Assembly: GCA_043782525.1 (NCBI GenBank)
Contig: JAYWAJ010000452.1
Span: 1-57,192, forward strand
DNA from: Deltaproteobacteria bacterium
GTDB lineage: Bacteria; Myxococcota; Myxococcia; Myxococcales; 40CM-4-68-19
Reading direction: 5' to 3'
DNA length: 57,192 nucleotides
Shown: piece by piece, positions 11,458 through 30,817 of the stretch
Position numbering within the stretch: the stretch's first letter is position 1
Layout of the letters: each line of letters starts with the position of its first letter
Notes under the pieces: generated by a model
The model's database searches: none
What the model saw: the letters and a program-made list of their open reading frames with translations, nothing else
Told to the model about the DNA's origin: nothing
Translations under genes and position numbers: made by a program

Positions 11458-13269
11458 CTAAGGCACGTTGATGGTCGTCTTCGAAGGACTGGCGGCGCCG
11501 ACTATCGTGAACGCGCCCGCCCCCGTTGCCCCTGCCAGGACCCGGCCATTGAGCGTCGAGCCGTTGTTGACGGTCGCCGTCCGGCCCGCGAGGATGTTTC
11601 CATTCCAGGTGGTCCCGGATCCGATGGTGATGTCGAGCCCGGCCACGAAATAGATGTTCTTGGCCTGGGCTCCATTGAGCAGCTTGATCGAGGTCGGAAG
11701 CAGCAGGGTGCCCGAGTCGACCAGCGTGCTGTCCACCTTGAAGATGAAGACCGCGTTCTGGTCGTTTTGCGCGTCCATGGTGGCGAATCCATTGGCGGCC
11801 AATCCAAGGTTGGCATTGTGATAGACGCCGGGGGTGAAGACCTTGCCGCTCATCTCGTCTCCGACCACCGCGCCATTGGTATCCGCCTTGTTCTTGCCCT
11901 CGTTCCAGGCAATCACCAGGTCATTGGTGACGGAATTGGCAGTTCCGCCATTGTCGAACGGATCGCCGGCGAAGAAGATGGAGCCATTGACGGTCAACCC
12001 GGTGGGGCTCGAGTAGGTCTTTTTCAGGCAGGTCTGGGAGGCGCCCGCGTTGCCGGTGGAGTCGGTGCACGACGCCAGCGAATAGAGCGCGACGTTTCCA
12101 TTCACCACCGTGACGCCGGTCGAGGTCAATCCATCGTGCGAGGCCAGCCCGAAGCTGGCGATGCCGCGCAGGTTGATGGGCTGCGTGCACAAGGTCGAGC
12201 TGGTGCCGAAGGTGAAGATCTTGTCGGCCGCCAGCGGATTGCCGCCCGCGTCCTTGACGCCGGTAGAGACCTTGGCGCTGTAGTTGGTGCCTCCGCTCAG
12301 CGGGTTCGAAGGGGAGAAGGTGGCGATCTTGTTCTGCCCATCATAGGAGACGGTTCCATTGACCGGGGTATTGGCCGCGCCGGAGGTGAGCGTGAAGTTG
12401 GCGGGAGTGACCGTGAGCGGATCCATCAGCTTGTCGAAGGTGGCGCTGATGGTCAGCGGGATGCAGAGGTTGGTCGCGCCATTGAGGGGATTGGTCGAAA
12501 TGACCTGCGGCGCGAGGGCGGGGCCGGCGGTGGTGGTGAAGCTCCAGACGTAGTTGGCCGCCAGCGCGTTGCCGGCCGTGTCCTTGGCGCCGGTGGTCAC
12601 GGTGGCGGTGTACTTGGTGCTGGGGGCGAGGTTGGAGGTGGGCGTGAAGGTCGCCACCAGCGCGGCCAGGTTGATGCTCACGGCGCCGGGCACCGCGACC
12701 GCGGGCGTTCCCGTCGTCAGCGTATAGGTGGTCGAGGTGAGGGTGGTCGGGTCCATCGCCTTGCTGAAGGTGGCACTCACTTTCTGGGCAACGGGGACGT
12801 TGACGGCGAGGTTGACCGGATCGGTCGCGGTCACCGTCGGCGGCGTGGTGTCGGCGGTGGTGCCGGTGGTGAAGCTCCAGGTGTAATCCGCCGCCAGCGC
12901 ATTGCCCGAGGCATCCTTGACCCCGGCCTTGATGGTCGCGGTGTAGAGCGTACTGACGGCGAGGTTGGCCGCCGGCGCGAAGCTGGCGGTGGCGCCCACC
13001 GTCGTCACGGCTCCGGCGACGGCGGTGGTCCCCTGCGAGACGAGGAAGGTCGTCGCGTTCAGGGTGGTGGCGTCCATCGCCGTGCTGAAGAGCGCGCTCA
13101 CCTTGCTGTTGATGAAGACGCCGGTGGCGGCGCTGGCCGGGATGGTCGAGGTGACCGTCGGCGCGTTGGGATTGGGAGGCGGCGCGCCGCCGAATTCGAC
13201 CAGCTGCTGTCCGCAGCCGGCCAGCGACGCGAGCAGCACGATCATCAGGGACTTCTGCCGCGTCTTCAT
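11458..13269 (-). CDS. Lipoprotein with 3 tandem Ig-like (SbsA/Big_5-type) domains and a C-terminal DUF3494 ice-binding-like beta-solenoid domain (paralogue a)
   Basis: Lipobox 'LASLAGC'. Three units of about 100 aa follow the pattern '...SATFSKAMDP.TLT..TF.L..G...V.G.V......ATF.P...L...T.Y.A.V..G.KD..GN.LAA...W.FTT'. The C-terminus has DUF3494 hallmarks ('GVTVVNGNVAL', 'FTPGVYH', 'DAQNDQNAVFIFKV', 'LNGAQAKNIYF', 'NGRVLA'). ATGA overlap with the upstream OmpA-like gene. Confidence 0.85.
   Translation of the reverse strand: MKTRQKSLMIVLLASLAGCGQQLVEFGGAPPPNPNAPTVTSTIPASAATGVFINSKVSALFSTAMDATTLNATTFLVSQGTTAVAGAVTTVGATASFAPAANLAVSTLYTATIKAGVKDASGNALAADYTWSFTTGTTADTTPPTVTATDPVNLAVNVPVAQKVSATFSKAMDPTTLTSTTYTLTTGTPAVAVPGAVSINLAALVATFTPTSNLAPSTKYTATVTTGAKDTAGNALAANYVWSFTTTAGPALAPQVISTNPLNGATNLCIPLTISATFDKLMDPLTVTPANFTLTSGAANTPVNGTVSYDGQNKIATFSPSNPLSGGTNYSAKVSTGVKDAGGNPLAADKIFTFGTSSTLCTQPINLRGIASFGLASHDGLTSTGVTVVNGNVALYSLASCTDSTGNAGASQTCLKKTYSSPTGLTVNGSIFFAGDPFDNGGTANSVTNDLVIAWNEGKNKADTNGAVVGDEMSGKVFTPGVYHNANLGLAANGFATMDAQNDQNAVFIFKVDSTLVDSGTLLLPTSIKLLNGAQAKNIYFVAGLDITIGSGTTWNGNILAGRTATVNNGSTLNGRVLAGATGAGAFTIVGAASPSKTTINVP
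12202..13161 (-). repeat. Three tandem Ig-like domain-encoding repeats inside paralogue a
   Basis: Roughly aa 37-136, 143-246 and 253-356 share the same motif order. Confidence 0.7.
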
Positions 13270-14357
13270 TGGGGGCTCTCTTCCTTCAAGATGATGAATG
13301 ACACGACGAAGTCGACCCGGCGGTTGGCTTCGCGGCCGGCGGCGGTCACGTTCGATTCGATGGGTCGCGAGGAGCCGAAGCCGGTGGCGAGGAGCCGGTC
13401 GCGCGCGACGCCGCGGGCGGCTAGGTAGTCGAGGACCGCCTGCGCCCGCTCCTGCGAGAGCGTCAGGTTGCGCGCGTCGCCGCCCTCGGAGGAGGAGTGG
13501 CCGTCGAGCTGGACCTTGAAGCCCGGGTTGTCGCGCAGCACCTTGGCGACCTGGTCGAGCACCGGGAAGGAGGAGGGCTCGAGGACGGCCTGGTCGTTGA
13601 GGAACTGGATCTTGTCCTTCAGCTCCAGCTTGCCCGGCTTGATGACCACCTTGTCGATGATGATCGCGGGGCAGGCGGGGCAGGTGGCCGCGGCGGCCAC
13701 GGTCTTTGCCGCCGGAGGAGCGGACTCGGCCGCGGGGGACGGCTTCACCAGGCGCGTCCCCATCTCGAGGCTGAGGCCGACGATGATGTTCTTCGAATCG
13801 TTGTTCTGGTAGCTGGTGCGGTTGCCCTGGAAGATCTGCAGGTAGCGGACAAAGGGTCCCAGCCACGCCGAGCGGCTCTCGCCGACCGGAAACGAGACAC
13901 CCGCGGCCAGCGCAAAGCCGGCGCGATCGAGCCCGCCGGTGCGCACGTACAGCAGGTCGCCGTCCACCCAGGGCTTGGCTCCCCAGAGCCCCTCGGGCGC
14001 GTGCGTCTTGCCGAGGCGCAGCGCTTCCGACTCGCGCGGCTTCTGGATGCGGACGCCGAGGCCCGGGGCCCAGGCGGTGCCGCCCTGGCCCGACTGCGCC
14101 GGCAAGCCGAGGAAGGTCAGGCCGGCCACGAAGCTGGCCCAGCCGTCTTCGGGTCCGACGATTCCTTTGACAGTTCCGGCCCCTCCCACCTTGAACCGGT
14201 CGGACTGCGGGGTGCTGAGGGGAAAGGCGAAGCCCGGCTCGATCTTGACCTCGAGGTCGGCGGCGCGCGCCGCCAGCGGGACTGCCAGGAAGACCGAGCC
14301 GAGGAGCTGCGCCGCGACGCGGGAGCTGCGGAGTCGTGGCAACGAGAGTCTGAACAT
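13266..14357 (-). CDS. OmpA-family protein (N-terminal barrel-like region plus C-terminal OmpA/peptidoglycan-binding domain)
   Basis: Signal 'MFRLSLPRLRSSRVAAQLLGSVFLAVPLAARA'. C-terminal 'F..D.AVLEPSSFPVLDQVAKVL...V.LDGHSSSEGGDARNLTLSQERAQAVLDYL...GFGSSRP......GREANRRVDF'. GGTGGAGA RBS. Confidence 0.88.
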   Translation of the reverse strand: MFRLSLPRLRSSRVAAQLLGSVFLAVPLAARAADLEVKIEPGFAFPLSTPQSDRFKVGGAGTVKGIVGPEDGWASFVAGLTFLGLPAQSGQGGTAWAPGLGVRIQKPRESEALRLGKTHAPEGLWGAKPWVDGDLLYVRTGGLDRAGFALAAGVSFPVGESRSAWLGPFVRYLQIFQGNRTSYQNNDSKNIIVGLSLEMGTRLVKPSPAAESAPPAAKTVAAAATCPACPAIIIDKVVIKPGKLELKDKIQFLNDQAVLEPSSFPVLDQVAKVLRDNPGFKVQLDGHSSSEGGDARNLTLSQERAQAVLDYLAARGVARDRLLATGFGSSRPIESNVTAAGREANRRVDFVVSFIILKEESPQ

Positions 14358-14410
14358 GGAGTCTCCACCTGTGGTCAAGCGGGCGGTGCGAGGGATTGCT
14401 TGCATACAGA

Positions 14411-14426
14411 GCATGACACGGGCCAA
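14411..14426 (-). promoter_or_regulatory. Sigma-54 (-24/-12) promoter candidate for the OmpA-like / Ig-DUF3494 operon
   Basis: The minus strand reads TGGCCCG-TGTC-ATGCT, against consensus TGGCACG-N4-TTGCW. GG-N10-GC spacing is correct. It lies about 55 nt upstream of the ATG at 14357. Confidence 0.6.
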
Positions 14427-14455
14427 GCGCTTTCGGGCACAATTCGGTTGTAACC

Positions 14456-14489
14456 CCGCAGGGCCAGCGCTTGGTGGCTGGCCCTGCGG
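14456..14489 (-). terminator. Perfect 13-bp stem hairpin downstream of the coiled-coil gene
   Basis: ccgcagggccagc / gctggccctgcgg with an 8-nt loop, 33 nt after the stop at 14522. Confidence 0.6.
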
Positions 14490-14506
14490 ACGTCCGCGAA
14501 CGTTCG
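14487..14506. promoter_or_regulatory. Two abutting palindromic decamers, CGGACGTCCG and CGAACGTTCG (candidate activator site)
   Basis: Both are perfect palindromes, 61-80 nt upstream of the -24 element at 14426. The same decamer family recurs at 14920, 16424, 16435 and 29321. Confidence 0.45.
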
Positions 14507-14521
14507 AGCGACACGCGCGCG

Positions 14522-14800
14522 TTATTTGAAATCTCCGTTCGCCGGCGGGTTGAGATCCTTCCATGCCAGCTCGACGCCAACCCTGAGCGCGGCCCAGGCC
14601 TGCTCCCCCGCGAGCTTGAGCTCGTCGAGGTGCTGGCAGGCGATCTCGTGCTGGTGCTGCGACGCTTCGACCTGCTTGTGGAACTCGATCCGTCCCTGGA
14701 GCTCGGCCTCTTCGAGCCTGGCCTTCATCGAGTCCAGACGTGCGCGCCAGGCGTTGAGCTGCGCCTCCATCTTCGCGACGTACAACTCCTTCTGCGACAT
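14522..14800 (-). CDS. Small coiled-coil protein (92 aa), unknown function
   Basis: Heptad-like 'YVAKMEAQLNAWRARLDSMKARLEEAELQGRIEFHKQVE...LDELKLAGEQAWAALRVGVELAWKDL'. GGGAGG RBS and its own -24/-12 promoter match. Confidence 0.7.
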   Translation of the reverse strand: MSQKELYVAKMEAQLNAWRARLDSMKARLEEAELQGRIEFHKQVEASQHQHEIACQHLDELKLAGEQAWAALRVGVELAWKDLNPPANGDFK

Positions 14801-14835
14801 CGAGCCTCCCGAAGCACTTGCCTGTCCGCCGCTTA

Positions 14836-14851
14836 CGCATTCGCCGTGCCA
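14836..14851 (-). promoter_or_regulatory. Sigma-54 (-24/-12) promoter candidate for the coiled-coil gene
   Basis: The minus strand reads TGGCACG-GCGA-ATGCG: a perfect -24 box and GC at -12 with correct spacing, about 36 nt upstream of the ATG at 14800. Confidence 0.65.
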
Positions 14852-14911
14852 CCCCCGGGACCGGCTTTCCGGGCAGAGAGGAGGATCGTGAGACCCTCCA
14901 CTCCGTCCGCG

Positions 14912-14945
14912 CGCGTCCAGCGGACGTTCGCACGCCAGCTGGACG
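14912..14945 (-). terminator. Hairpin downstream of DUF3494 paralogue b (its loop contains a CGGACGTTCG decamer)
   Basis: 9-bp stem gcgtccagc/gctggacgc with a 16-nt loop, 24 nt after the stop at 14969. Confidence 0.4.
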
Positions 14946-14968
14946 CACGCCGGTTGCCGGACCCGCCC

Positions 14969-16207
14969 TTAGTCGTCGTCGCCCTCGTGGTCGTCGCCCT
15001 CGTGGTCGTCGTCCTTGTCGCAGGCGTCGCCCGCCTTGTGCAGCTTGATGTTGCCGCCGGCCAGGTTGCCCGAGGCGCCGTAGGCGAAGGCCCCGTTGGC
15101 GCCGCTCACCCGCAGCGAGAACTTGTCGTTGCGGCCGGGCTCGCCGTTGTCGGTCACGTCCGCCTGCCAGGTAAATCCGTCGCGGCCGTTCAACTGCGCG
15201 TTGCCCGAGATGCGCCGCGTGGTGCTGTCGAGGACCAGGTACCCGGTGACGCTGGTGCTCTTCACTTCCGGACCGCCGCTTCTGTGGTCCTGGTAGGTGA
15301 GGTGGCCACGGAAGGCGCCGTGCCTGGTGCCGCCGGAGACGCCAAAGGTGCCCTTCGCTCCCGAGGGCGTGGTCTTGATCCACCCGCCGCCGGTGACGAA
15401 GTCCTTGCCGCGGCACGAGGGAGGAGGGTTGCCGCCGCCCAGCGCGCAGCTGGTGACGACGTCGCCGGTGATGGTGATGGCGGCCTTCGAGTAGGCGTCG
15501 CCGTTGAAGGTGCCGCGGGTGAGGGTGATGGCCTGGCCGGCGAGGACGGTCCCGACGAACTTGGAGTCGGTCAGGGTGACCGCCTCGGCGACCCACCAGT
15601 AGACGCTGCCGCAGGCGGGCGCCGTGCCGCTGCTGGTGACTACCGAGAAGTTGGTGCCGGTCAGGGCGCCGGTCCCGAGCGTTCCGACCTTGAAGATCCA
15701 GGTCCCGTTGGACGGCCCGTTCAGCGTCAGCACGCCGCCGGTCGAGGTGGCCGCGGCGTCGAAGCAGTAGATGCCGGGGGAGAGGGTGAGGCCGTCGAGC
15801 GTGGTCAAGGTCTGGCCGCAAGGCAGCGCCGCGAAGGCGGCGTAGGCGGTGAGGAAGTCGGTGTGGGCCTGCGCGGCGGTGGCATCGCCCGCGTCGATGG
15901 TGCCCGTCACGGGGCAGCTCGTCTGGGTGATGGTGTTGCCGGGAGAGACGCCGACGTTGCCGGCCACGGTGGCGTCGGTGCAGGTCACTGCCGTCGAGGC
16001 GAGGACGGCGAAGTTGGCCGCCGTGCCCAGCGACGGGACCGGGCTGCCGGAAGAGAGGGACGCGGGAAGAGCCGGCACCAGCGACGACTGCGCAGGCTCC
16101 ATTCCCCCGCAGGCAGCGACGGCGATCGCCAGCAGGGCGATCGAGCGGGGGATCGACGGGAGGCTCAGCGCAGACGGATAACCTGGTTGGGTATTGAACG
16201 AATTCAT
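14969..16207 (-). CDS. Lipoprotein with an N-terminal DUF3494 ice-binding-like domain and a C-terminal beta-rich domain with an acidic His/Asp tail (paralogue b)
   Basis: Lipobox 'AVAACG'. DUF3494 hallmarks 'LGTAANFAVLASTAVT', 'VAGNVGVSPG', 'AAQAHTDFLTAY', 'LSPGIYCF', 'LTLNGPSNGTWIFKVG', 'VYWWV', 'FVGTVLA'. C-terminal 'FVTGGGWI...DNGEPGRNDKF...GGNIKLH' and tail 'DKDDDHEGDDHEGDDD'. Confidence 0.85.
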   Translation of the reverse strand: MNSFNTQPGYPSALSLPSIPRSIALLAIAVAACGGMEPAQSSLVPALPASLSSGSPVPSLGTAANFAVLASTAVTCTDATVAGNVGVSPGNTITQTSCPVTGTIDAGDATAAQAHTDFLTAYAAFAALPCGQTLTTLDGLTLSPGIYCFDAAATSTGGVLTLNGPSNGTWIFKVGTLGTGALTGTNFSVVTSSGTAPACGSVYWWVAEAVTLTDSKFVGTVLAGQAITLTRGTFNGDAYSKAAITITGDVVTSCALGGGNPPPSCRGKDFVTGGGWIKTTPSGAKGTFGVSGGTRHGAFRGHLTYQDHRSGGPEVKSTSVTGYLVLDSTTRRISGNAQLNGRDGFTWQADVTDNGEPGRNDKFSLRVSGANGAFAYGASGNLAGGNIKLHKAGDACDKDDDHEGDDHEGDDD

Positions 16208-16258
16208 GATTGCCTCGGGGGGGAACCTGCGGAAGGCGGAAAAACAGGAGCGAACCCC

Positions 16259-16297
16259 TTGCCCGAGCGAGTCTCGCGAGGGAGGGACCGGCCCAAC
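16259..16297 (-). promoter_or_regulatory. Conserved upstream block shared with the upstream region of paralogue d (30869-30906)
   Basis: Plus strand TTGCCCGAGCGAGTCTCGCGAGGGAGGGACCGGCCCAAC versus TTGCCCGAGCGATTCTCGCAAGGGAGGACGGCCCCAAC. Both lie about 50-95 nt upstream of the respective start codon. Confidence 0.5.
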
Positions 16298-16423
16298 ATA
16301 GGGGCGCGATGGGCTCCGTCAAGGCGCCGCGCGCTCATTGACCGGCAAGTGCCGGCCGTTGCGGCCTATCTATTTTCATTGACCGCCCAACGCCGCGCGC
16401 CTGCCTCGAACCTCGCGTGATTT

Positions 16424-16444
16424 CGAACGTTCGCCGAACGTTCG
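16424..16444. promoter_or_regulatory. Tandem CGAACGTTCG palindromes (11-nt period) in the divergent region between paralogue b and the EBP gene
   Basis: 'tCGAACGTTCGcCGAACGTTCGc'. It lies 53-73 nt upstream of the EBP start and is followed by an AT-rich stretch with TATATT. Confidence 0.45.
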
Positions 16445-16496
16445 CTGTTGCGATGAGCCTACGAACTGGGTAAAAAACACCCTTAGTGTTTGTATA

Positions 16497-17840
16497 TTGA
16501 ACAATGCGCCCCGCGCGCGGAAGGAGGGCCCGATCCTGGTCACCGCGAACGGCCCACCGTCGGAGAGCGCAGAGCTGGTTCCCTCGCTCACGCTCGCCTT
16601 CAAGAACCAGGGGCGCGGCGCCACCGAGCACCGGCTCATTCCCCGCGCGGGCCTGATGCTCGGCCTGGGCGCGAGCGTCTTCGACGAGCCGTTCGACGAC
16701 ACGAGGATGTCCGTCCGGCACGCCGAGGTCGGGGTCGACTCTGGCCAGCCGTTCGTCCGCGATCTCTCGAGCAGCGGCGGGACCCGCGTCAACGGCGACG
16801 CGCTGATGGGAAAGCGATCGCTGGTGGCCGGCGACGTCATCCGGATTGGCGACACCCTCTTCGTCTACGCGGCCGCGGCGGCGGTGACGTTGCCCGAGCC
16901 CGAATCGGAGCTGATCGGCGAGAGCGCGGCGCTGGTCGCCGTTCGCCGCAGCATCGAGGCGGTGGCCCGCCACATGCATACGGTGGTGGTCACCGGCGAG
17001 ACCGGCACCGGCAAGGAAGTGGTCGCGCGCGTCCTCCACCAGCGCAGCGGCCGCACCGGCCCGTTGGTCGCCGTCAACTGCGGCGCCTTCGCCGAAGGCC
17101 TCTTGCCCAGCGACCTGTTCGGCCACGTGCGCGGCGCCTTCACCGGCGCGGTCACCGAGGAGCAGGGCCTCTTCCGCGCCGCCCGCGCCGGGACGCTGCT
17201 GCTCGACGAGGTGGCCGAGATCGCCATCGGGCTGCAGGCCAACCTGCTCCGTGTGATGGAGGCCCGGCAGGTGCGCCCGGTGGGAAGCACGCGCGACATC
17301 GCCATCGACGTGCGGGTCGTCGCCACCAGCAACCGGGAGCTGATGGCGCTGGTGCAGGAGCGATCGTTCCGCTCCGACCTCTACTCGCGGCTGGCGCAGT
17401 GGACCATCCGGCTGCCGCCGCTGCGGGAGCGGCGCGAGGACATCCCTTCGCTCACCCGCAGCCTGCTGGGCCGCTGCGACGCCTCGGGCCGGGCCATGAC
17501 CAGCGACCTCGCCGAGGCGCTGCTGCTGCACGACTGGCCGCTCAACGTCCGGGGGCTCTTCAACGTGCTGGCCATCGCGGCCATCTGCGCGCCGTCCGGC
17601 GTCCCGCTCTCGCTGGGCGCAGAGGTCCGCTCCGCGATGTGGACCAGCCGGACGCTGGCCCTGATCCCCGACGAGAAGGGGCCGCTGGTCGTGGACAAGG
17701 ACGCCCTCGAGCAGCTCCTCGGGCGCTTCAACGGCGGCGTCGCCGCGGCGGCGCGCCACCTCGGCATCACCCGGCCCAGGCTCTACCGGCTGCTCAAGGT
17801 CCGCGGCGTCGAGCCGTCGGCCTTCCGGCACCGCGGCTGA
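16497..17840 (+). CDS. Sigma-54-dependent transcriptional activator with an N-terminal FHA domain (bEBP)
   Basis: FHA region ('SVRHAEV...VRDLSSSGGTRVNG...GDVIRIGDTLFVY'). AAA+ Walker A 'GETGTGKE', 'GAFTGA' loop, Walker B 'LLLDEV'. C-terminal HTH 'AARHLGITRPRLYRLLK'. The TTG start as called has no RBS, so the start is uncertain. Confidence 0.9.
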   Translation: MNNAPRARKEGPILVTANGPPSESAELVPSLTLAFKNQGRGATEHRLIPRAGLMLGLGASVFDEPFDDTRMSVRHAEVGVDSGQPFVRDLSSSGGTRVNGDALMGKRSLVAGDVIRIGDTLFVYAAAAAVTLPEPESELIGESAALVAVRRSIEAVARHMHTVVVTGETGTGKEVVARVLHQRSGRTGPLVAVNCGAFAEGLLPSDLFGHVRGAFTGAVTEEQGLFRAARAGTLLLDEVAEIAIGLQANLLRVMEARQVRPVGSTRDIAIDVRVVATSNRELMALVQERSFRSDLYSRLAQWTIRLPPLRERREDIPSLTRSLLGRCDASGRAMTSDLAEALLLHDWPLNVRGLFNVLAIAAICAPSGVPLSLGAEVRSAMWTSRTLALIPDEKGPLVVDKDALEQLLGRFNGGVAAAARHLGITRPRLYRLLKVRGVEPSAFRHRG

Positions 17841-17883
17841 CCCGTCCGGGTCCAGCCGCGGCCTCCAGATCCGGACCGGCTGA

Positions 17884-18687
17884 TCAGGGCAGCGTGACGG
17901 CGTTGCCGTCCAGCGCCACCTGCGACTGCGCCAGCGCCCGGCCGTGGAGCGAGGCGCCGGTGTTGAGGGTGATGGCCGTCTGGCAGAGGATGGTGCCCTC
18001 GAAGTGCGAGGTGGTGCCGAGAGTGGTCTGCCCCGCCACCTGCCAGGTGATGTTCTTGGCGCTGGCCCCGCCGCTCAAGAGGACCTTCTTGGCCGCGGCG
18101 ATGGTCAGGTCGCCCGCGATCTGGAAGATCCAGACGTCGTTGGCGCCGCCGGCGATGGTGACGTCGGTCGGGATCGACACCGAGTTCGACCACTTGTAGA
18201 GGCCCGGCGCGAGGGTGAGGCCGCCGATGAGGCCGGTGCCCAGCTCGGTGTGGTCGGGGTTGGTCCGGCCGGCGGCATCGGTATAGGCGGTCTGCATCTT
18301 GCCGATGGCCGAGGTCAGGTTGGCGGGAGTGGGCACGGCATAGTCCGAGGCATAGATCTTCCCGGTCACCTGGGCGGAGGTCGAAGCCGCGCCTCCCGCC
18401 GGGAGCGTCTGGCTGAAGCCGGTCAGATAGGTCGCGGCGGCGGGGCTCAAGCCGATGTCGCCGGTGACCGCGGTCGTGCCGGTGTTGGAGACTCCGGTCT
18501 TGGCGAGGATGGCGTAGTCGGCGGCGCCGGCGACGTCCCCGGGAGCTCCCAGGCCGACCGGAGCGGGGCCGGCGCCGGCCGGGTTCTGCGGGTTGTTGGG
18601 TGCGGTGGTGCTCCCGCAGGCAGCGAGCAGCAGCGTCGAGAGGCAGATTCGGGCCAGCGTTCCAGGACAGCTCTTGCGTTCACGCAT
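17884..18687 (-). CDS. DUF3494 ice-binding-like lipoprotein (paralogue c)
   Basis: Lipobox 'LLLAACG'. 'YAILAKTGVSNTGTTAVTGDIGLSP', 'MQTAYTDAAGR', 'LAPGLYKWSNSV', 'GGANDVWIFQIAGDLT', 'GGASAKNITWQVAG', 'FEGTILC', 'HGRALAQ'. AAGGAGAA RBS. It is about 60 percent identical by eye to the C-terminal domain of paralogue d. Confidence 0.9.
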   Translation of the reverse strand: MRERKSCPGTLARICLSTLLLAACGSTTAPNNPQNPAGAGPAPVGLGAPGDVAGAADYAILAKTGVSNTGTTAVTGDIGLSPAAATYLTGFSQTLPAGGAASTSAQVTGKIYASDYAVPTPANLTSAIGKMQTAYTDAAGRTNPDHTELGTGLIGGLTLAPGLYKWSNSVSIPTDVTIAGGANDVWIFQIAGDLTIAAAKKVLLSGGASAKNITWQVAGQTTLGTTSHFEGTILCQTAITLNTGASLHGRALAQSQVALDGNAVTLP

Positions 18688-18728
18688 TGGTGGTTCTCCT
18701 TGTTGTGCAGCATTGAAAATGGAAATCC

Positions 18729-19898
18729 TCAGCGGGACGCCCAGGGGCGGGACTCGAGCCGCCGCGCGGCGCCCACCAGGCGGTCCAGCCGGTCGACCAC
18801 GCCGACCAGCGCGGGCGAGGCCGGAGTGGGCGACTGCGCGATGCGCCCGCGCAGCGTGACGAGGCGGCGCGCGACCTCCCGCAGATCGCCCGAGACCGCC
18901 GAACGCGGCGAGAAGAGCAGCCGCTCGCCGAGGATCTGGATCACCGCGGCGACCGGCGCCGCCGCGAAGAGGCCGGGGACTCCGTAGGCGTCGGCCAGCG
19001 CCACCAGCGTGACGATCTCGAGGATGGCGTTGCTGCGACGGAGCGGAAGCGCGCGGGCGCCGACCACGGCGATGAGCATGAAGGTCGCCGCCGTCAGCAG
19101 GCCCGCGCCGGCCGCCGTCACCGTCCCGTCGGCGAAGCCCACCAGGATGGCCCCCAGCACGGCGCAGGGGATCCCGGCCACGGGAATGAGCCGGGCCAGC
19201 CCGGCGACCACCGCCGGCAGCGTCGCGAAGCGCAGGCCCAGCGCGTGAAAGCCCAGGTCGAGGATGACGATGGCGACCAGGCTCTGCGCCAGCTGCGAGC
19301 GCAGGTACGCTCCCACGCCGGCCTTGGCGGCGCGCCAGGTCTCCCGCGTGCGCACGCGCAGCCCGGACGAGAGCAGCGAGAGGCCCCAGTGCTCGAAGGC
19401 GTCGCGGTTGGCGAGCCAGTAGACGCTCATGGCGAGGACGATGACCGCGCGCCCGAAGAGCTCGACCGCGCCCATGGTGATGCCCAGGACTGCTTGGGCG
19501 CCCGAGCCCGGGGTCTGCGAGCCGAGTGCGCGGTAGAGCTCCGCCGAGGCGGGCAGGCGCTCGACCAGCACCCGGCGCAACAGGTTGAGCTGCGAGCCGC
19601 TGGCGCCGTCCCAGGCGTGCATCAGCTCGTTGGCGGCGTCCTGGGCCTCGGAGAGGAGCGGCGGCACCAGCGCCATTGCCAGGACGGCGACGCCCGCCAA
19701 CAGGCCCGCGAAAGTCAGGGCGAGCGCGATCGAGCGCCGGACGCGGCGGGCGACGAGGAAGTCCACCGCCGGCCGCACCATGGCCACGGTGGCGAGCGCC
19801 AGCACGAAGAGGAAGATGGCTTCGCGGAACTGCCAGAGCAGCGCCGCGCCCGCGACGGTGGCGAAGACCAGCGCGACGAAGAACGCGAGGCGCTTCAC
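18729..19898 (-). CDS. AI-2E family (PerM/UPF0118) transporter, copy 2
   Basis: Polytopic membrane protein with the AI-2E-type C-terminal core 'LARLIPVAGIPCAVLGAILVGF'. GTGA overlap with the upstream paralogue. Confidence 0.8.
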   Translation of the reverse strand: MKRLAFFVALVFATVAGAALLWQFREAIFLFVLALATVAMVRPAVDFLVARRVRRSIALALTFAGLLAGVAVLAMALVPPLLSEAQDAANELMHAWDGASGSQLNLLRRVLVERLPASAELYRALGSQTPGSGAQAVLGITMGAVELFGRAVIVLAMSVYWLANRDAFEHWGLSLLSSGLRVRTRETWRAAKAGVGAYLRSQLAQSLVAIVILDLGFHALGLRFATLPAVVAGLARLIPVAGIPCAVLGAILVGFADGTVTAAGAGLLTAATFMLIAVVGARALPLRRSNAILEIVTLVALADAYGVPGLFAAAPVAAVIQILGERLLFSPRSAVSGDLREVARRLVTLRGRIAQSPTPASPALVGVVDRLDRLVGAARRLESRPWASR

Positions 19899-21166: not shown

Positions 21167-21168
21167 GG

Positions 21169-23488: not shown

Positions 23489-24648
23489 GATTCGACCAGC
23501 CGGAAGAAGACGGTGAAGATCGAATCGACCAGGACCAGCGTGAAGAGGCTGACCACCACCGTCGCGGTGGTGCGGCGGCCCACGCCCTCGGCGCCGCCGG
23601 TGGTGGCGAGGCCCTGCTGGCAGGCGATGAGCGAGATGGCCAGGGCGAAGAAGACGCTCTTGATCAGGCCGGAGCCGACGTCCCAGAGGCTGACCACGGC
23701 GACGGTCTCGTGGAAGTAGCCCGACATGGTCAGGTCGAGGTTGACGAGCCCGACCAGCAGCCCGCCGAGGATCCCGAAGAGGTCGGCGACCAGGGTGAGC
23801 ATGGGCACCACCAGGATCAGCGCCACCGTCCGCGGCACCACCAGAAAGCGCATGGGGCCGAAGCCCATGGTCCGCAGCGCGTCGACCTCCTCGTTGACCT
23901 GCATGAAGCCGAGCTCGGCGGCGAAGGCCGCGCCCGACCGGCCGCAGATGACGATGGCGGTCATGAGCGGGGCCAGCTCGCGGGTCACCGAGATGCCGAT
24001 CAGATCGGCCACCAGGAGCTGCGCGCCGAAGCGCTTCAGCTGGGCCGCCGCCTGGAAGGCCATCGCCAGCCCGACGAGGAAGTTGATGAGGACGACGATG
24101 GGCACCGCGTTGGCGCCGGAGCGCTCCATGGTCGGGGCCAGCTCCTTCCAGTTGGCCCCGCGCGGATTGCGGGCGAGCTTGACGACCGTGACCACCATCT
24201 GGCCGAAGAAGGCCAGCACCAGCTGGACCTCCTGCATGATCTCCAGCGTCGACTCGCCGATCTGATCGAGCAGGCCCTGCGGCTTGCGGCGCTTGAGCTT
24301 GCCGACCTCGAGGTCGCCGCCGTAGAGGTGGATGACCTCCTGCACGCTCCCGCTGGCGCCGGTGAACTCCGACTTGACGCCGCGCCGGTGCAGGTTGGCG
24401 CGCACCGAGGCGAGCAGCGCCATGGCGCCGCCGTCCACCGACCGCACCCGCGACATGTCGAAGTCGAGGGTGCCGCCCCTCCCGGTGGCGGAGTCCATCC
24501 GCTGCAGCTCCGCCCAGAGCCGGCCGGCGTCGGCCAGCGTCAGCTCGCCTTCGAGGCGCAGCTCATAGCGCGCGTCGGCGGCCGCATAGGCGCCGAGCGC
24601 GAAGGAGGTCTTCGCCAGGGGCGGGCGTGCGCGGGTCGGCAAGGACAT
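23485..24648 (-). CDS. MlaE-family ABC permease with an N-terminal STAS-like domain
   Basis: The first 110 aa or so are STAS-like ('YELRLEGELTLADAGRLW...LDFDMSRVRSVDGGAMALL...GVKSEFTGASG'). The MlaE core follows: 'ELAPLMTAIVICGRSGAAFAAELGFMQVNEEVDALRTMG'. Confidence 0.85.
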   Translation of the reverse strand: MSLPTRARPPLAKTSFALGAYAAADARYELRLEGELTLADAGRLWAELQRMDSATGRGGTLDFDMSRVRSVDGGAMALLASVRANLHRRGVKSEFTGASGSVQEVIHLYGGDLEVGKLKRRKPQGLLDQIGESTLEIMQEVQLVLAFFGQMVVTVVKLARNPRGANWKELAPTMERSGANAVPIVVLINFLVGLAMAFQAAAQLKRFGAQLLVADLIGISVTRELAPLMTAIVICGRSGAAFAAELGFMQVNEEVDALRTMGFGPMRFLVVPRTVALILVVPMLTLVADLFGILGGLLVGLVNLDLTMSGYFHETVAVVSLWDVGSGLIKSVFFALAISLIACQQGLATTGGAEGVGRRTTATVVVSLFTLVLVDSIFTVFFRLVES

Positions 24649-24652
24649 CGGT

Positions 24653-25039
24653 TTACGAGGCGGAGGGCGTCTGCAGCACGGTGAGGAACTTGTCGAGCGC
24701 CTCGTCGTCGCGGAAGAGCATCAGCCCGTCGAGCGCCTTGATGATCTCGAAGGTCTTCTCGATGCGCGGCTGCACCCCCAGCATCATGCAGGAGCCGTTG
24801 CGCTCGATGACCCGCTTGCGCGCGGTGAGGATGACGCGAACTCCGCCGCTGGAGAGGAAGTTGAGCTTGGCCAGATCGAAGACGATGATCTGGGTCGGCC
24901 CGGCGAAGACCTCGAGCAGCTCCTTCTCGAGCTGCGGCGCGGTGGCCGTGTCGAGCGAGCCGTTGAGGCCGATCTTGGCCATCTGCTTGCCGTCTTTCCA
25001 GGGACGAAACGAGACGCTGGTGATGAGAGCCATGCTCAC
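24653..25039 (-). CDS. STAS-domain protein (anti-sigma-factor antagonist / SpoIIAA-RsbV-like)
   Basis: 'IGLNGSLDTATAPQLEKELLE...IIVFDLAKLNFLSSGGVRVIL' with a Ser in the phospho-acceptor position. GTGA overlap with the upstream gene; an alternative ATG is at 25033. Confidence 0.85.
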   Translation of the reverse strand: MSMALITSVSFRPWKDGKQMAKIGLNGSLDTATAPQLEKELLEVFAGPTQIIVFDLAKLNFLSSGGVRVILTARKRVIERNGSCMMLGVQPRIEKTFEIIKALDGLMLFRDDEALDKFLTVLQTPSAS

Positions 25040-26606
25040 TCCTGTGGGGGCTTGCGGTTCAGGTCGCGCACCAGCGTGAGGAGGTTTTCGTTCCCATCGC
25101 GCTGGTAGGCGATGCGATCGGTGGCGTTCTTGACGAGGAGGATCCCGAGGTCGCCGCTGGCCCGCTCGTCGAGGGGCACCTCGAGGTGGGGGGCCTGGGC
25201 CATGCGCGGATCGAAGAAGACGCCGCGGTCGCGGATCTCGATCTTGACCGCGACGGCGTCGATGGCGACGCGCAGCCCCATCGGCCCCTCGGTGCCGGCG
25301 TAGCCGTGGCGGACCAGGTTGGAGAGGACCTCCTCGACGGCGAGCCCGAGGTCGTGGACCACGTCGTCCGAGGCGCCGCGCGCGCGGAGGAACGCCTGCA
25401 CCGCCTCGTAGCCCCGCACCACCTCGGCCAGGTTGCTGTGGAGGGTGAGCTTCAGCTCGGCCGGGGGGCGCCAGCGGATGGCGAGGAGCGCGATGTCGTC
25501 CGACTGGGGCTCGCCCCGCGCAAAGGTCCGCACCGCCGCCAGCACGCGGTCGACCATCACCTTCGAGCTGGGCGCGGCCTCGCGCAGCGCCTGGAGCAGC
25601 CGCTCCTCGCCGAAGAGATCGTGGGCGGGATCGAAGGCCTCGGTGACGCCGTCGGTGTAGAGGAGGAGCGCGTCGCCCGTCTGCAGTTGCACCTCGCGCG
25701 CCTCGAAGGCCAGGTCGGGCTGGATGCCGATGAGCGTCCCCGGCCGGTCGGCGAGGAGCTGGGGCGGCTGGCCCGCGCGGAGCAGCACCGGAGCGGTGTG
25801 GCCGCCGCTGGCGCAGGAGAGCAGGCCGGTCCGGGTGTCGAGGACGGCGCAGAAGAGGGTGACGAACATCGAGCTGGGGTTGTCTCGCGACAGCTCCTGG
25901 TTGACGTGGGAGAGGATCTCCTCCGGGCGCTTGACGTGGCGGGCGGTCGAGCGCAGCAGCGTGGCGGTGATGGCCATGAAGAGCGCGGCGGGGATGCCCT
26001 TGCCCGAGACGTCGCCGAGCACGATGCAGAGGCGTCCGTCGCCGAGCGGGAAGACGTCGTAGAGATCTCCGCCCACTTCCTTGGCCGGCTCGAGCAGCGC
26101 GTGCACGTCGACGGGCAGGCCGGAGCCCAGGCTGCGGAAGTCCTTGGGGACCATCCCGCGCTGGATCTCCTGCGCCACCCGCAGCTCGCTCTCCAGATTG
26201 GCGCGGACGCTGTCCTGGTACATCTTGCCCTTGAGCAGCGAGCGCACCCGCGCCCGGACTTCGACCGCCTCGAAGGGCTTGGTGATGTAGTCGGTGCCGC
26301 CGGCCTCGAAGCCGCGCGCCTTGCTCTTCGGCTCCGCCAGCGCGGAGAGGAAGATGACCGGCAGGTCGCGGGTGGCGGGCTGTTCGCGCAGGCGGCGGCA
26401 GACTTCGTAGCCGTCCACCCGCGGCATCATGAGATCGAGCAGCACCAGGTCAGGCGCGCTCTGCGCGATGCTGCGCAGCGCGCTCTCGCCGTCGAGCGCC
26501 ACCGAGAGGAGGTGGTGGCCCTGCAGCGCTTCGACGAGGACGTCGAGGCTGGAGCGGGCGTCGTCGACGAGGAGGACGCGGCACTTGGAGAGGTCGAGCG
26601 TGTCCA

Positions 26607-26610
<4 letters not shown>
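25036..26610 (-). CDS. Response-regulator receiver + PP2C/SpoIIE phosphatase + C-terminal RsbW/SpoIIAB-like HATPase domain fusion
   Basis: REC 'VLLVDD...LVLLDLMMPRVDGYEV...ITKP'. PP2C 'GGDLYDVF...VLGDVSGKGIPAALFMA...LLLYTDGVTEA...SDDIALLAIR'. C-terminal 'LAVEEVLSNLVRHGY...IEIRDRGVFFDP...GDLGILLVKNATD'. Confidence 0.88.
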
Positions 26611-29168
<2,558 letters not shown>

Positions 29169-29234
29169 AGGACCTCCAAAGAGTGCGAGCGCATGCTTCG
29201 CGTGCGCGAACCTGCGACCGATCGATCAGAACTT

Positions 29235-29250
29235 TGCAGCGAACGTGCCG
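29235..29250 (-). promoter_or_regulatory. Sigma-54 (-24/-12) promoter candidate for the hybrid-kinase / partner-switch / Mla operon
   Basis: The minus strand reads CGGCACG-TTCG-CTGCA with correct GG-N10-GC spacing, about 67 nt upstream of the ATG at 29168 (GGAGG RBS). Confidence 0.55.
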
Positions 29251-29280
29251 CACGTCCGTTACCCCAAACGCCCGACGTGC

Positions 29281-29311
29281 CTCGGGCCACCGAGGCTGCC
29301 GGTGGCCCGAG
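29281..29311 (-). terminator. Perfect 12-bp stem hairpin downstream of DUF3494 paralogue d
   Basis: ctcgggccaccg / cggtggcccgag with a 7-nt loop. A second small hairpin (gtccgcg/cgcggac) lies at about 29326-29346. Confidence 0.55.
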
Positions 29312-29362
29312 CACCGTTCACGAGCGTCCGCGAAGCGTCCGCGGACTCTTTGCCCGACCCGA

Positions 29363-30817
29363 CTACGGAGCGGGCTGCACGACCGTCGCCTTTTGCAGGG
29401 CGACCGCCGTCTGCGAGAGGAGCCTGCCGTTCATCGAGGCGCCGGTCACCAGCGTGACGTCTGTCTTGCAGAGCAGGACGCCTTCGAAGTGCGCGCCGGC
29501 CCCGATGCTCGCCTTGCCGGCGACCTGCCACCAGATGTTCTTCGCCAGCGCGCCGCCGGCCAGAATGACCTTCATGTTGTCGGCCTGGGTGAGGTCGCCG
29601 GTGGTCTGGAAGATCCAAGTGTCGTTGGGGCCGCCGGAGATGGTCACGTCCGAGAGGATGTCCACGCTGCTCGTCCACTTGTAGAGGCCCGGCGCCAGCG
29701 TCTGGCCTCCGATGTGGCCGGTGAGGAGCTCGTTGAAGTCGGGCGTGGTTCGGCCCGCGGCGTCGGTGTAAGCGCCTTCCATGTTGCCGACCGCGGTGGT
29801 CAGGTTGATCGGAGTCGGATCCGCCTGGTCGGCGGCGTAGACCTTGCCGACCACCTGGGGCGAGGTCGCGTACCCGGTGGCGTCGGTCAGCCCAAAGCCG
29901 GTGATGAAGCTCTCGGCGGCAGGGCTCACCGCGATGTCTCCGGTGATGGTTGCGGTCACTGGCACGGTGGGGACCGAGGAGATGGCCGTTTTCGCCAGGA
30001 CGACGTAGTTGCCCGCCGTCCCGAGCAACACCGGCGCGGGCCCCTTTGCGACGGTGGTGCCGGTGGTGAAGTTCCACGAGTAGGCGCTCGCCAGCGGGTT
30101 GCCTACCGAGTCCTTGACTCCGGTGGAGAGAGAAGCCGTGTAGACGAGGCTGCCGCTCAGCGGGCTGGTAGGCTTGAAGGTTGCGGAGGTGCCCGGACCA
30201 TAGGAGACGCTACCCGGTACAGCAGTGGTCCCCTGCTTCAGCGTAAACGTGATGGCGGTGATCGTCGAGGCGTCCATCGCCTTGCTGAAGCTGGCGGCGA
30301 CCGTCGTGTTGAGGGCCACGCCAGTAGCGTCCTTCACCGGGGTCGTCGCGCTGACCACCGGCGGGGTGGTGCTCGCGGTCGTCCCGGTGGTGAAGGTCCA
30401 GGCATGATCCGCAGCCAGAGCGGCTCCTGCCGTCGAGGTCGCCCCGGCGGTGATGGTGGCGGTGAAGGCGGTGCTCGCGGCCAGCGCGCTGGTAGGCGTG
30501 AAGGTCGCGGTCAGGCCGTCTGCGCTGGTGGTCACAGCTCCCGCGACCGCGGTGGCGCCTTGCTTGAGCGTGAAGCTGGTCGCGCCGAGCGGAGCCATCG
30601 CCCGGTCGAAGGTGGCGGTGGGCTTGATGTTGAGCGCCACGTTGGTGGCTGCGTTCAGGGGCGTCGTCGAGCTGATCGTGGGCGCCGGGGGAGGGGGTGT
30701 GGCGGGTGTGTCGCTCCCGCAGCCGAGCGCGGTGAGCGCCAGGAGGACGAGCGCTAAGGGGGCGACGCGACTGGTTCGGACAGACGGGTGGTGGGAATTT
30801 GCGAGAGACGAACGCAT
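29363..30817 (-). CDS. Lipoprotein with 2 tandem Ig-like (SbsA/Big_5-type) domains and a C-terminal DUF3494 ice-binding-like domain (paralogue d)
   Basis: Start chosen at MRSSLANS... with lipobox 'LTALGC' and a GGAG RBS; the track's longer ORF to 30946 has no signal peptide. Two Ig units are present. The DUF3494 part reads 'LGTAGNYVVLAKTAIS', 'ITGDIAVSP', 'MEGAYTDAAGR', 'LAPGLYKWTSSV', 'GGPNDTWIFQTTGDLT', 'GGALAKNIWWQVAG', 'FEGVLLC', 'NGRLLSQ'. Confidence 0.88.
   Translation of the reverse strand: MRSSLANSHHPSVRTSRVAPLALVLLALTALGCGSDTPATPPPPAPTISSTTPLNAATNVALNIKPTATFDRAMAPLGATSFTLKQGATAVAGAVTTSADGLTATFTPTSALAASTAFTATITAGATSTAGAALAADHAWTFTTGTTASTTPPVVSATTPVKDATGVALNTTVAASFSKAMDASTITAITFTLKQGTTAVPGSVSYGPGTSATFKPTSPLSGSLVYTASLSTGVKDSVGNPLASAYSWNFTTGTTVAKGPAPVLLGTAGNYVVLAKTAISSVPTVPVTATITGDIAVSPAAESFITGFGLTDATGYATSPQVVGKVYAADQADPTPINLTTAVGNMEGAYTDAAGRTTPDFNELLTGHIGGQTLAPGLYKWTSSVDILSDVTISGGPNDTWIFQTTGDLTQADNMKVILAGGALAKNIWWQVAGKASIGAGAHFEGVLLCKTDVTLVTGASMNGRLLSQTAVALQKATVVQPAP
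30059..30685 (-). repeat. Two tandem Ig-like domain-encoding repeats inside paralogue d
   Basis: Roughly aa 45-145 and 152-253 share the motif order seen in paralogue a. Confidence 0.65.

Follow-up and report, generated by a model that had tools for sequence, protein, structure and literature searches.

Organization of the DUF3494 locus

Within the 57,192-nt contig JAYWAJ010000452.1 of a Deltaproteobacteria bacterium (assembly GCA_043782525.1), whose whole length we refer to here as the window, positions 11458–30817 hold a block of genes in which four lipoproteins of the DUF3494 family, denoted a, b, c, and d, are encoded next to a sigma-54 enhancer-binding protein (EBP) with an FHA domain, an OmpA-family protein, a 92-aa protein, and an operon for signalling and transport (Table 1). 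From the promoter elements and candidate upstream activating sequences (UAS) of that block, the adjacent EBP is predicted to bind the 10-bp palindrome CGAACGTTCG and to co-regulate three transcription units of the window. The genes were called from third-position G+C—the window having about 70% G+C—and were then checked with Pfam and NCBIfam profiles; all those in the block lie on the minus strand with the sole exception of the EBP gene, as the initial annotation of this DNA had stated. For comparison we used contigs that encode orthologues of c or of the EBP, against which all the window proteins were scored by tblastn, seven of these relatives—L003, L004, L005, L006, L008, L090, and L098, all metagenome contigs from one clade—being informative.

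The OmpA-family protein carries a signal peptide; its N-terminal domain, ~200 aa long, shows an alternating strand pattern, and its C-terminal OmpA domain is of the peptidoglycan-binding kind. The stop codon of its gene overlaps the start codon of a in the sequence ATGA, in agreement with the coupling already noted for one of the paralogues. The gene tables of the window and of the relatives contained a 4-nt overlap between the OmpA-like gene and the downstream gene in seven of seven pairs; by these overlaps the OmpA-family protein is translationally coupled to a downstream DUF3494-type gene in all the pairs examined. The 92-aa gene, which the initial annotation had overlooked, belongs to the sll1863 family (NCBIfam NF052504, 73.7 bits versus a cut-off of 35) and has orthologues in L005, L008, and L090. 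Sll1863 itself ranks among the general stress proteins and tops the list of those induced by salt in Synechocystis (PMC8670252).

Table 1. Genes and regulatory features of the DUF3494 locus, in window coordinates.
Feature	Position	Strand	Evidence or description
DUF3494 paralogue a	11458–13269	-	Lipobox LAGC; 3 Big_5; divergent C-terminal DUF3494
OmpA-family protein	13266–14357	-	Pfam OmpA 9.6e-21
Sigma-54 type -24/-12 element before the OmpA-a operon	14411–14425	-	TGGCCCGTGTCATGC
Candidate UAS before OmpA-a	14487–14506		Perfect CGAACGTTCG at 14497–14506 and adjacent 2-mismatch copy
92-aa sll1863-family coiled-coil protein, cytoplasmic	14522–14800	-	NCBIfam NF052504
Sigma-54 type -24/-12 element before the 92-aa gene	14837–14851	-	TGGCACGGCGAATGC (1 mismatch)
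Candidate UAS before the 92-aa gene	14921–14930		CGGACGTTCG (1 mismatch)
DUF3494 paralogue b	14969–16207	-	Lipobox VAAC; DUF3494 solenoid; post-COAP-1 barrel
Sigma-70-like promoter and leader of b	16208–16322	-	TTGACG-16-TATGTT at 16322–16295
Two tandem perfect CGAACGTTCG palindromes, EBP/b intergenic region	16424–16444		16424–16433 and 16435–16444
FHA-domain sigma-54 EBP	16497–17840	+	Pfam; Walker A; GAFTGA; Fis-type helix-turn-helix
DUF3494 paralogue c	17884–18687	-	Lipobox LAAC; canonical ice-binding-protein-type domain
Two AI-2E family (PF01594) permeases	18729–19898, 19895–21166	-	Pfam 1.4e-29, 1.7e-55
PF03886 auxiliary lipoprotein	21169–21774	-	Pfam
MlaD	21771–22736	-	Pfam 1.4e-14
MlaF ATPase	22736–23488	-	Pfam ABC_tran
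STAS(MlaB-like)-MlaE fusion	23485–24648	-	Pfam MlaE 1.7e-72; NCBIfam TIGR00056 231 bits
STAS antagonist	24653–25033	-	Pfam; motif FLSSGG
REC-PP2C-HATPase_c_2 protein	25036–26610	-	Pfam
Hybrid histidine kinase PAS-PAS-HisKA-HATPase-REC-Hpt	26607–29168	-	Pfam
Candidate kinase-operon sigma-54 promoter and degenerate palindrome	29236–29330	-	CGGCACGTTCGCTGC at 29236–29250; CGGACGCTCG at 29321–29330
DUF3494 paralogue d	29363–30817	-	Lipobox ALGC; 2 Big_5; canonical ice-binding-protein-type domain
Sigma-70-like promoter and leader of d	30818–30931	-	TTGACT-16-TAGGTT at 30931–30904

Predicted regulation by the EBP and sigma-54

The EBP combines its FHA domain with the Sigma54_activat (1.8e-56) and HTH_8 (1.1e-5) domains, and its translation contains GETGTGKE as the Walker A motif along with GAFTGA. 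The palindrome CGAACGTTCG is present in perfect form three times in the window versus 0.14 expected, a number reached by none of 100 shuffles, and all three copies are intergenic and inside the locus; with up to two mismatches allowed, 10 of the 14 matches in the locus fall within its 1,189 nt of intergenic DNA. A palindrome at the distance from a -24/-12 element that is given below, beside the gene for an activator with a Fis-type helix-turn-helix, constitutes the standard layout of the regulons of NtrC-family enhancer-binding proteins, which correspondence is the ground on which binding of the palindrome by the EBP is predicted.

The -24/-12 matches that the initial annotation had reported ahead of three transcription units are indeed there, but their frequency is not above chance, since in the whole window 41 matches to TGGCAC-N5-TTGC were found versus 54 expected. 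With the window-wide counts at that level, the support for the specific sites comes down to their conservation and the geometry of the UAS. For the element before OmpA, alignment with L005, L006, and L008 shows a conserved block, TGGCACG-N4-YGTGC, where the surrounding DNA has diverged, and matching sites upstream of OmpA were found in L098 and in L014 as well; the element before the 92-aa gene, TGGCACGGCGAATGC, has TGGCATGGCCAATGC as its counterpart in L005. The spacing, measured from the centre of the palindrome to the -12 GC, has a modal range of 88–92 nt, into which fall both the 92-aa gene and the OmpA promoters of the window (89 and 91 nt), p92 of L005 (90 nt), the OmpA promoters of L006, L008, and L098 (89, 91, and 89 nt), that of c in L004 (88 nt), and a site in L093 (89 nt); second palindrome sites lie at ~138–165 nt.

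When we defined a composite as a palindrome with at most one mismatch plus a -24/-12 element with at most two, 21 occurrences at ~13 promoters were obtained in 233 kb of family loci versus one in 1.59 Mb of unrelated loci, so that composites are ~140 times denser in the former than in the background; and even the single background composite adjoins an EBP homologue, with a spacing of 91 nt. Within the window three of three composites are located inside the locus, the third of which, that of the kinase operon, qualifies if the palindrome is relaxed to two mismatches. There, CGGACGCTCG lies 90 nt away and the -24/-12 element is one base off that of the b-like promoter of L090; in view of the higher background under the relaxed definition and of the lack of conservation in L003 and L004, we rate a sigma-54/UAS promoter at this position as probable only, and as weaker than those of the OmpA and 92-aa genes. 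In the window, paralogue c is most simply regarded as closing the 11-kb operon that would start at this promoter. The tandem pair of palindromes near the EBP gene lies 53–73 nt upstream of its start, and in L091 and L092 the palindrome recurs ~100–130 nt ahead of the EBP gene; these sites taken together suggest autoregulation, which we consider likely, the other possibility being that the pair is a remnant UAS.

As to the input of the EBP, its FHA domain has the arginine of the GR motif (EBP residues ~50–60) replaced, the sequence being GL, with SVRH and NG kept; an N-terminal alignment gave GL, not GR, in most orthologues of at least 75% identity and GR in the more distant ones. Having lost the phosphothreonine-binding arginine, this domain may no longer read phosphothreonine. 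No link between the EBP and the partner switch of the operon could be established.

Paralogues b and d appear to be governed otherwise. Their upstream regions on the minus strand (16208–16400 and 30818–31010, respectively) are 76% identical over ~200 nt and share TTGAC(G/T)-16-TA(T/G)GTT, the b site being the only sigma-70-like hit across the whole 20-kb block, while their leaders share a block of ~45 nt, GCGAGANTCGCTCGGGCAA, in two copies versus 0.27 expected by chance. We read the shared block as a duplicated sigma-70 promoter plus leader, or as an operator. The d-type promoter block is conserved before the d orthologues of L003 and L004, the exact leader block of b and d not being found in the relatives; the b orthologues of L008 and L090 have instead the palindrome plus a -24/-12 element, for which reason b of the window appears to have acquired a d-type promoter. 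A sigma-54 promoter for b in the window was considered and rejected, the GG-to-GC spacing being 9 rather than 10. A riboswitch or attenuator was likewise rejected, in that four leaders, when folded, had z-scores ranging between +0.79 and -2.34 and shared no structure.

The apparent co-regulation of the block, as the initial annotation had put it, therefore stands, as a prediction, for the three units that share the palindrome and the promoter geometry, but does not extend to the whole: with b and d of the sigma-70 type and c lacking a convincing promoter of its own, the block is not one uniformly rpoN-dependent regulon.

Several further sites came to light during these searches. Composites are located in L006 at 16905–17054, between divergent DUF4136 and DUF3300/DUF2950 genes; before DUF5670 genes in L091 (12805–12901) and L092 (15816–15920), both being EBP relatives without DUF3494; and in L119 at 5754–5849, a locus counted as background that encodes a 42%-identical EBP. 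The wider EBP family, to judge from these positions, may control a general envelope-stress regulon. A palindrome with one mismatch, CGAACGTGCG, lies at 6834–6843, ~45 nt ahead of a pair of PAP2 and GT21 genes and without a -24/-12 partner; in L006, L091, and L092, too, PAP2 genes are found beside the EBP or the partner switch. Directly after the stop codon of d, a perfect stem of ~12 bp (CTCGGGCCACCG ... CGGTGGCCCGAG, 29281–29312, minus strand), which is probably the d terminator though it has no T tract, sits between the degenerate palindrome and the -24/-12 element of the kinase operon.

The DUF3494 lipoproteins

The four DUF3494 proteins, which the initial annotation had located correctly, score 107.7 (a), 95.4 (b), 259.4 (c), and 220.7 (d) bits with PF11999, all above the gathering score of 28.7 bits (E values 8e-31, 5e-27, 3e-77, and 2.2e-65), and a lipobox motif is present in all four. 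The two paralogues for which two or three Ig-like domains had been claimed do carry them, in the form of three Big_5 repeats in a (Pfam 3e-71) and two in d (Pfam 1.8e-42). Between c and d the identity is 58%, against ~60% estimated before by eye; the assignment of a and b to one subtype, however, has to be abandoned, because the DUF3494 domains of these two share 26% identity without a BLASTP hit and b is nearer to c (34%). Paralogues a and b have 23–34% identity to c and d. By sequence the four paralogues are of three subtypes.

In a PDB sequence search, c matched the ice-binding protein mFfIBP (4nu3) with 124 of 216 aligned residues identical (57%; E 8e-77), structures from Candidatus Cryosericum odellii scoring nearly as high; and every one of its 25 matches was an ice-binding or antifreeze protein. 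By such identities c and d are canonical domains of the IBP-1 fold; with the NCBIfam equivalog IBP_CFB they score 236 and 215, respectively, both under the cut-off of 400. The best PDB match of a with phmmer was 5uyt, IBPv, at 2e-13, and b reached an E value of 3e-7; a is thus placed, by sequence only, as a divergent member of DUF3494. For b, an AlphaFold2 model from a 54-sequence alignment had a mean pLDDT of 82.9, with values >90 over residues 60–250, which segment includes a helix at 109–126, and residues ~55–255 were modelled as an IBP-1 solenoid; Foldseek against the PDB returned as the first 27 matches DUF3494 ice-binding proteins exclusively, at root-mean-square deviations mostly of ~2–3 Å and TM scores of 0.60–0.84, normalised by the length of the single-domain targets. 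Paralogue b accordingly models as sharing the IBP-1 fold. Structure prediction for all four paralogues had been recommended as a check of that fold, which check may be regarded as answered by the model for b and by identity to crystal structures for c and d, the fold of a being predicted from its sequence.

The C-terminus of b is a post-COAP-1 domain (NCBIfam post_COAP_1, 2.7e-41), which was likewise missed in the initial annotation: its residues ~270–390 were modelled by AlphaFold2 as an eight-stranded beta-barrel, for which Foldseek against the PDB gave no confident match, and the barrel is followed by an acidic tail, HEGDDHEGDDD. Homologues of this domain occur in metagenome-assembled genomes (MAGs) of Nitrospirota, Gemmatimonadales, and Limnocylindrales.

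DUF3494 is treated almost wholly as an ice-binding domain in the literature consulted, which also records it in hundreds of bacteria of warmer habitats, its role in these possibly being to bind other surfaces (PMC11645318; PMC12337378). The premise implied in the initial annotation, by which the DUF3494 domains of this locus would fall outside the biology of ice binding, is not proven; c and d are 57–58% identical to proteins with measured antifreeze activity. As regards the origin of the genes, the third-position G+C is 0.89 in a and d versus 0.95–0.97 in the signalling and transport genes, which lower value, along with the presence of c-type domains of 55–69% identity across many phyla, is consistent with reports that DUF3494 genes are often transferred horizontally.

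The signalling and transport operon

The 11-kb operon is tightly packed, with the hybrid kinase, the REC-PP2C-kinase protein, STAS, STAS-MlaE, MlaF, MlaD, the lipoprotein, the two AI-2E permeases, and finally c, 41 nt beyond the second AI-2E gene, just as had been described. The parts of a partner switch are recognizable in the domain order REC-PP2C-HATPase_c_2, in the adjacent STAS protein with the phosphorylation motif FLSSGG, and in the C-terminal Hpt of the upstream kinase. A REC-PP2C-kinase protein plus a STAS protein is the architecture of HsbR/HsbA and CrsR/CrsA, which control biofilm, motility, and RpoS (PMC6482189). Among the Pfam-annotated genes of the locus no output of the switch—anti-sigma factor, sigma factor, or diguanylate cyclase—is encoded; a sigma factor of the extracytoplasmic-function type is found ~20 kb off, at 49443–50063, with no evident link to the locus.

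The N-terminal STAS domain of the MlaE fusion has a weak match to mlaB_1 (NCBIfam, 1e-6), and we take it to be an MlaB subunit fused to the permease, not a component of the partner switch. In L003 and L004 the free STAS gene remains next to those for the kinase and PP2C, while the STAS-MlaE operon lies elsewhere. MlaC and MlaA were not found in the window, the PF03886 lipoprotein being present instead; MCE systems with a lipoprotein of the PqiC/YmbA type offer a comparison for such a transporter.

Conservation in related contigs

The order of the window is retained best in L005, from the kinase to a, without b and with protein identities of 71–91%. In the remaining relatives the parts are reshuffled. 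L004 has a d-like gene, the two AI-2E genes, and c, then the EBP, kinase-PP2C-STAS, and the Mla operon on the other strand; L003 has kinase-PP2C-STAS-AI-2E (two)-c, a 191-aa gene similar to the OmpA N-terminal domain that overlaps a Big_5-DUF3494 gene, an inverted Mla operon, and a d-like gene. The 888-kb contig L006 contains a response regulator-Hpt gene, PP2C, STAS, PAP2, the EBP, OmpA overlapping a Big_5-DUF3494 gene, and two DUF3494 genes, its c being 64% identical; L008, from an NCBI Myxococcales MAG, contains c, the EBP, a b-like gene, p91, and OmpA overlapping an a-like gene. In L090 the EBP is divergent from a b-like gene, p92, OmpA, and a 365-aa gene, with a second OmpA/Big_5-DUF3494/DUF3494 set 7 kb off; in L098 it is divergent from OmpA, a, b, c, STAS-MlaE, MlaF, MlaD, the lipoprotein, and AI-2E, all on one strand. 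The AI-2E pair is upstream of c in L003, L004, and L005.

The contention that the paralogues are not scattered is thereby borne out, the gene set being clustered, in reshuffled form, in seven related contigs; and the occurrence of the same parts in at least five different arrangements speaks for selection on proximity rather than for inherited synteny alone. From this comparison of sequences, the robust core consists of the EBP, the 92-aa gene, OmpA, and the DUF3494 genes, with the partner switch, Mla, and AI-2E as frequent but looser companions. The nearest named relatives are MAGs labelled 'Myxococcales bacterium'. Outside the informative set, L009, whose c is 64% identical, has none of the neighbours, and the EBP relatives L091 and L092 (60–62% identity) lie among DUF5670, BON, PAP2, AI-2E, and sigma-factor genes without DUF3494. 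A scan of JGI metagenomes with the EBP yielded relatives of at most 63% identity, most of them on short contigs, L098 being informative. Among GTDB genomes with c-type domains, the exceptions to a general lack of these neighbours are a Haliangiales MAG with OmpA, an a-like gene, and c, and a Myxococcales MAG with the EBP, b, and c. Since the c-type domain is widespread without such neighbours, the association is specific to the clade and not general to DUF3494.

Interpretation of the locus

We interpret the block as a lineage-specific envelope-stress neighbourhood of an EBP and sigma-54, belonging to an uncultured Myxococcota clade, that would have recruited surface-tethered lipoproteins of the ice-binding type; an interpretation that we judge to have about an even chance of being right. 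The EBP would be activated by stress, the most plausible signals being freezing, osmotic stress, and desiccation, and would then bind the palindromes and drive sigma-54 transcription of the sll1863-family gene and of the OmpA-a pair and, more weakly, of the kinase/partner-switch/Mla/AI-2E/c operon. After export the lipoproteins would be presented at the outer membrane, their assembly anchored to the peptidoglycan through the OmpA-like protein, and would there bind ice or some other ordered surface; adjusting the balance of lipids and ions at the outer membrane would fall to the Mla-type transporter and to the AI-2E permeases; a second regulatory output would be set by the phosphorelay and partner switch of the HsbR/HsbA kind; and b and d would be expressed separately from their shared sigma-70-type promoter. 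That the stimulus might concern the envelope, osmotic conditions, or freezing is suggested by the sll1863 family, by the stress-type neighbours of the EBP paralogues, and by the HsbR/CrsR-like switch; and EBP relatives of ~60% identity that lack DUF3494 have the same palindrome plus promoter before DUF5670. We infer that c and d bind ice, as well as the roles of the Mla, AI-2E, and partner-switch components in this system. As the initial annotation had it, an envelope-remodelling system is plausible from the gene context.

A considerable number of observations weigh against such an interpretation. On the side of regulation, b and d carry sigma-70-like promoters; the FHA domain of the EBP lacks the arginine through which its input would be read; tolerance of two mismatches in the palindrome raises the background to 7 composites per 1.59 Mb; the kinase-operon -24/-12 element is not conserved in L003 or L004; and c in the window has no convincing -24/-12 element of its own, as c in L003, L004, and L008 does. 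On the side of gene content, MlaC and MlaA are not among the called genes of the 57-kb window by Pfam, which genes could be encoded elsewhere; the Mla, AI-2E, and partner-switch genes are not in the available sequence of L008; L090 is without Mla or a partner switch, having one distant AI-2E gene and a different kinase with response regulators; and L006 is without Mla and AI-2E. In 80 GTDB genomes from many phyla, moreover, c-type domains of 55–69% identity are almost never accompanied by these neighbours. DUF3494 is common in bacteria of non-icy habitats, where its function is not known (PMC11645318), and the source habitat of the window was not established, a literature search on the sample accessions having given nothing. 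Finally, every functional step is a prediction from sequence and comparison.

The most specific version of the proposal would be a freeze/osmotic regulon in which the FHA-type sigma-54 activator, at CGAACGTTCG enhancers, controls tethered ice-binding lipoproteins, an OmpA-like anchor, and a stress protein, the co-inherited partner switch, MlaB-MlaE-fusion transporter, and AI-2E permeases adapting the envelope to freezing; this would be the first such circuit for bacterial ice-binding proteins, and we advance it tentatively, as a possibility that is rather doubtful. In our view it is just as tentative to suppose that the same regulon controls DUF3494 lipoproteins acting as general adhesins—for mineral, polysaccharide, prey, or kin—in a biofilm, adhesion, or lifestyle switch like that of HptB-HsbR-HsbA in Pseudomonas. 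The family has been described as both ice-binding and substrate-binding (PMC12337378), a and b are divergent from c and d at 23–34% identity, Big_5 stalks with an OmpA partner resemble an adhesin architecture, HsbR/HsbA-type switches govern biofilm versus motility (PMC6482189), and c-type domains also turn up in phyla of groundwater and soil, Patescibacteria and Gemmatimonadota among them; yet the identity of c and d to proteins of measured antifreeze activity, with the best PDB matches all ice-binding, is at odds with general adhesion, as is the co-regulated sll1863-family gene, which points to osmotic or general stress, and the names of several MAGs with the nearest homologues of c (GL, GFS, ant_bin, palsa) give a weak hint of cold sites.

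The extent of the functional unit may also be smaller than we propose, consisting of only the EBP, the 92-aa gene, OmpA, and DUF3494, with the kinase/partner-switch, Mla, and AI-2E genes as an independent operon, of housekeeping or stress function, that happens to be nearby in this lineage. The companion modules being wholly or partly not seen in L008, L090, and L006 would agree with such a restriction, as would the weakness and lack of conservation of the kinase-operon promoter, the general role of MlaFEDB-like systems as envelope machinery, and the circumstance that the comparison loci all come from one clade with protein identities of 60–89%. We nevertheless hold the restriction to be unlikely, in that the modules lie within ~20 kb in five arrangements (the window, L003, L004, L005, and L098), the Mla operon of L098 follows c directly on the same strand, the d-like gene of L004 is 5 nt upstream of the AI-2E pair, and the kinase promoter of the window has the 90-nt geometry of the two strong sites and a -24/-12 element nearly identical to that of the b-like promoter of L090.

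Comparison with known systems and significance

The layout of a and d, in which a lipobox and two or three Big_5 repeats precede PF11999, resembles that of SfIBP_1, the cell-associated ice adhesin of Shewanella frigidimarina, which has tandem Ig-like beta-sandwiches and, C-terminal to them, a DUF3494 domain (Vance, Graham & Davies 2018, FEBS J 285:1511; PDB 6bg8); for a and d surface exposure is predicted only. The similarity is low, 6bg8 matching c with an E value of 2e-25 and a with 3.7e-10, and unlike SfIBP_1 the locus features Big_5 repeats, lipoboxes, the translational coupling of one paralogue to an OmpA-family protein, and a predicted sigma-54/EBP regulon. We know of no description of lipoboxes, OmpA coupling, or a sigma-54/EBP regulon for SfIBP_1. 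With the soluble DUF3494 ice-binding proteins (FfIBP/mFfIBP, 4nu2/4nu3; the Candidatus Cryosericum odellii protein, 9lhn; TisAFP; LeIBP; ColAFP), c and d have the whole domain in common; those references are secreted single- or two-domain proteins from polar organisms, whereas the proteins of the locus are lipid-anchored, form a set of four paralogues, and are putative ice binders, b differing in addition by its post-COAP-1 beta-barrel.

The signalling genes share with HptB-HsbR-HsbA of Pseudomonas and CrsR-CrsA of Shewanella oneidensis the REC-PP2C-kinase plus STAS pair and the input of a hybrid kinase through Hpt, but differ in that the Hpt is fused to the hybrid kinase, no target is identifiable in the locus, and in the window and L005 the partner switch shares its operon with an Mla-type transporter. 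The transporter in turn has the MlaE permease, the MlaF ATPase, the single-MCE MlaD, and the MlaB-like STAS module of MlaFEDB, from which, along with MlaC and MlaA, it departs in the fusion of STAS to MlaE, in the PF03886 lipoprotein, and in the lack of MlaC/MlaA in the window. The EBP has the FHA, AAA+ sigma-54 interaction, and helix-turn-helix domains of the FHA-domain enhancer-binding proteins of Myxococcus xanthus, likewise a myxobacterium (Jelsbak, Givskov & Kaiser 2005, PNAS 102:3010); unlike those, it has the FHA arginine replaced, an envelope/stress rather than developmental regulon is predicted for it, and a specific UAS, CGAACGTTCG, is predicted at ~90 nt.

The components of the locus all belong to known families, then, and the combination of Ig-like domains with DUF3494 is known from SfIBP_1. 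As far as we have checked, what is new is the set of lipid-anchored ice-binding-type paralogues, their conserved OmpA-like partner, the predicted EBP/sigma-54 regulon with a defined enhancer, and the recurrent linkage of partner switch, MlaB-MlaE fusion, and AI-2E. The literature search turned up no described system of such composition, in keeping with what the initial annotation had stated; nor did it find a paper combining 'ice-binding' with 'sigma-54', or, among 41 papers mentioning DUF3494, a title or abstract on gene regulation. To our knowledge almost nothing is known about the regulation and display of DUF3494 proteins in bacteria, or about their roles in soil and freshwater species. 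The locus provides a concrete predicted circuit, made up of a named activator, a 10-bp site of fixed geometry, three putative promoters, and an OmpA-like partner that is conserved, and it connects DUF3494 proteins with functions in general stress and in envelope lipids. Should c and d prove to bind ice, Myxococcota would have surface-anchored ice-binding proteins controlled by sigma-54; otherwise the locus would constitute a handle on a non-ice function of the family.

Neighbouring genes

To the left, the locus is flanked by pstSCAB-phoU, an IS200-like transposase, PAP2, GT21, RlmL, and Host_attach genes, and to the right by uncharacterised open reading frames, sensor kinases, and BNR proteins; no connection to the locus was found for the flanking genes on either side, and an Rfam scan of the whole window at gathering thresholds gave no family. 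The IS200-like (Y1 transposase) gene, at 6107–6712, is situated 4.7 kb to the left of the locus. Two open reading frames of the plus strand without a Pfam match, 31102–32376 and 32373–33128, are divergent from d, and in L003 an unannotated gene is likewise located beyond the d-like gene.

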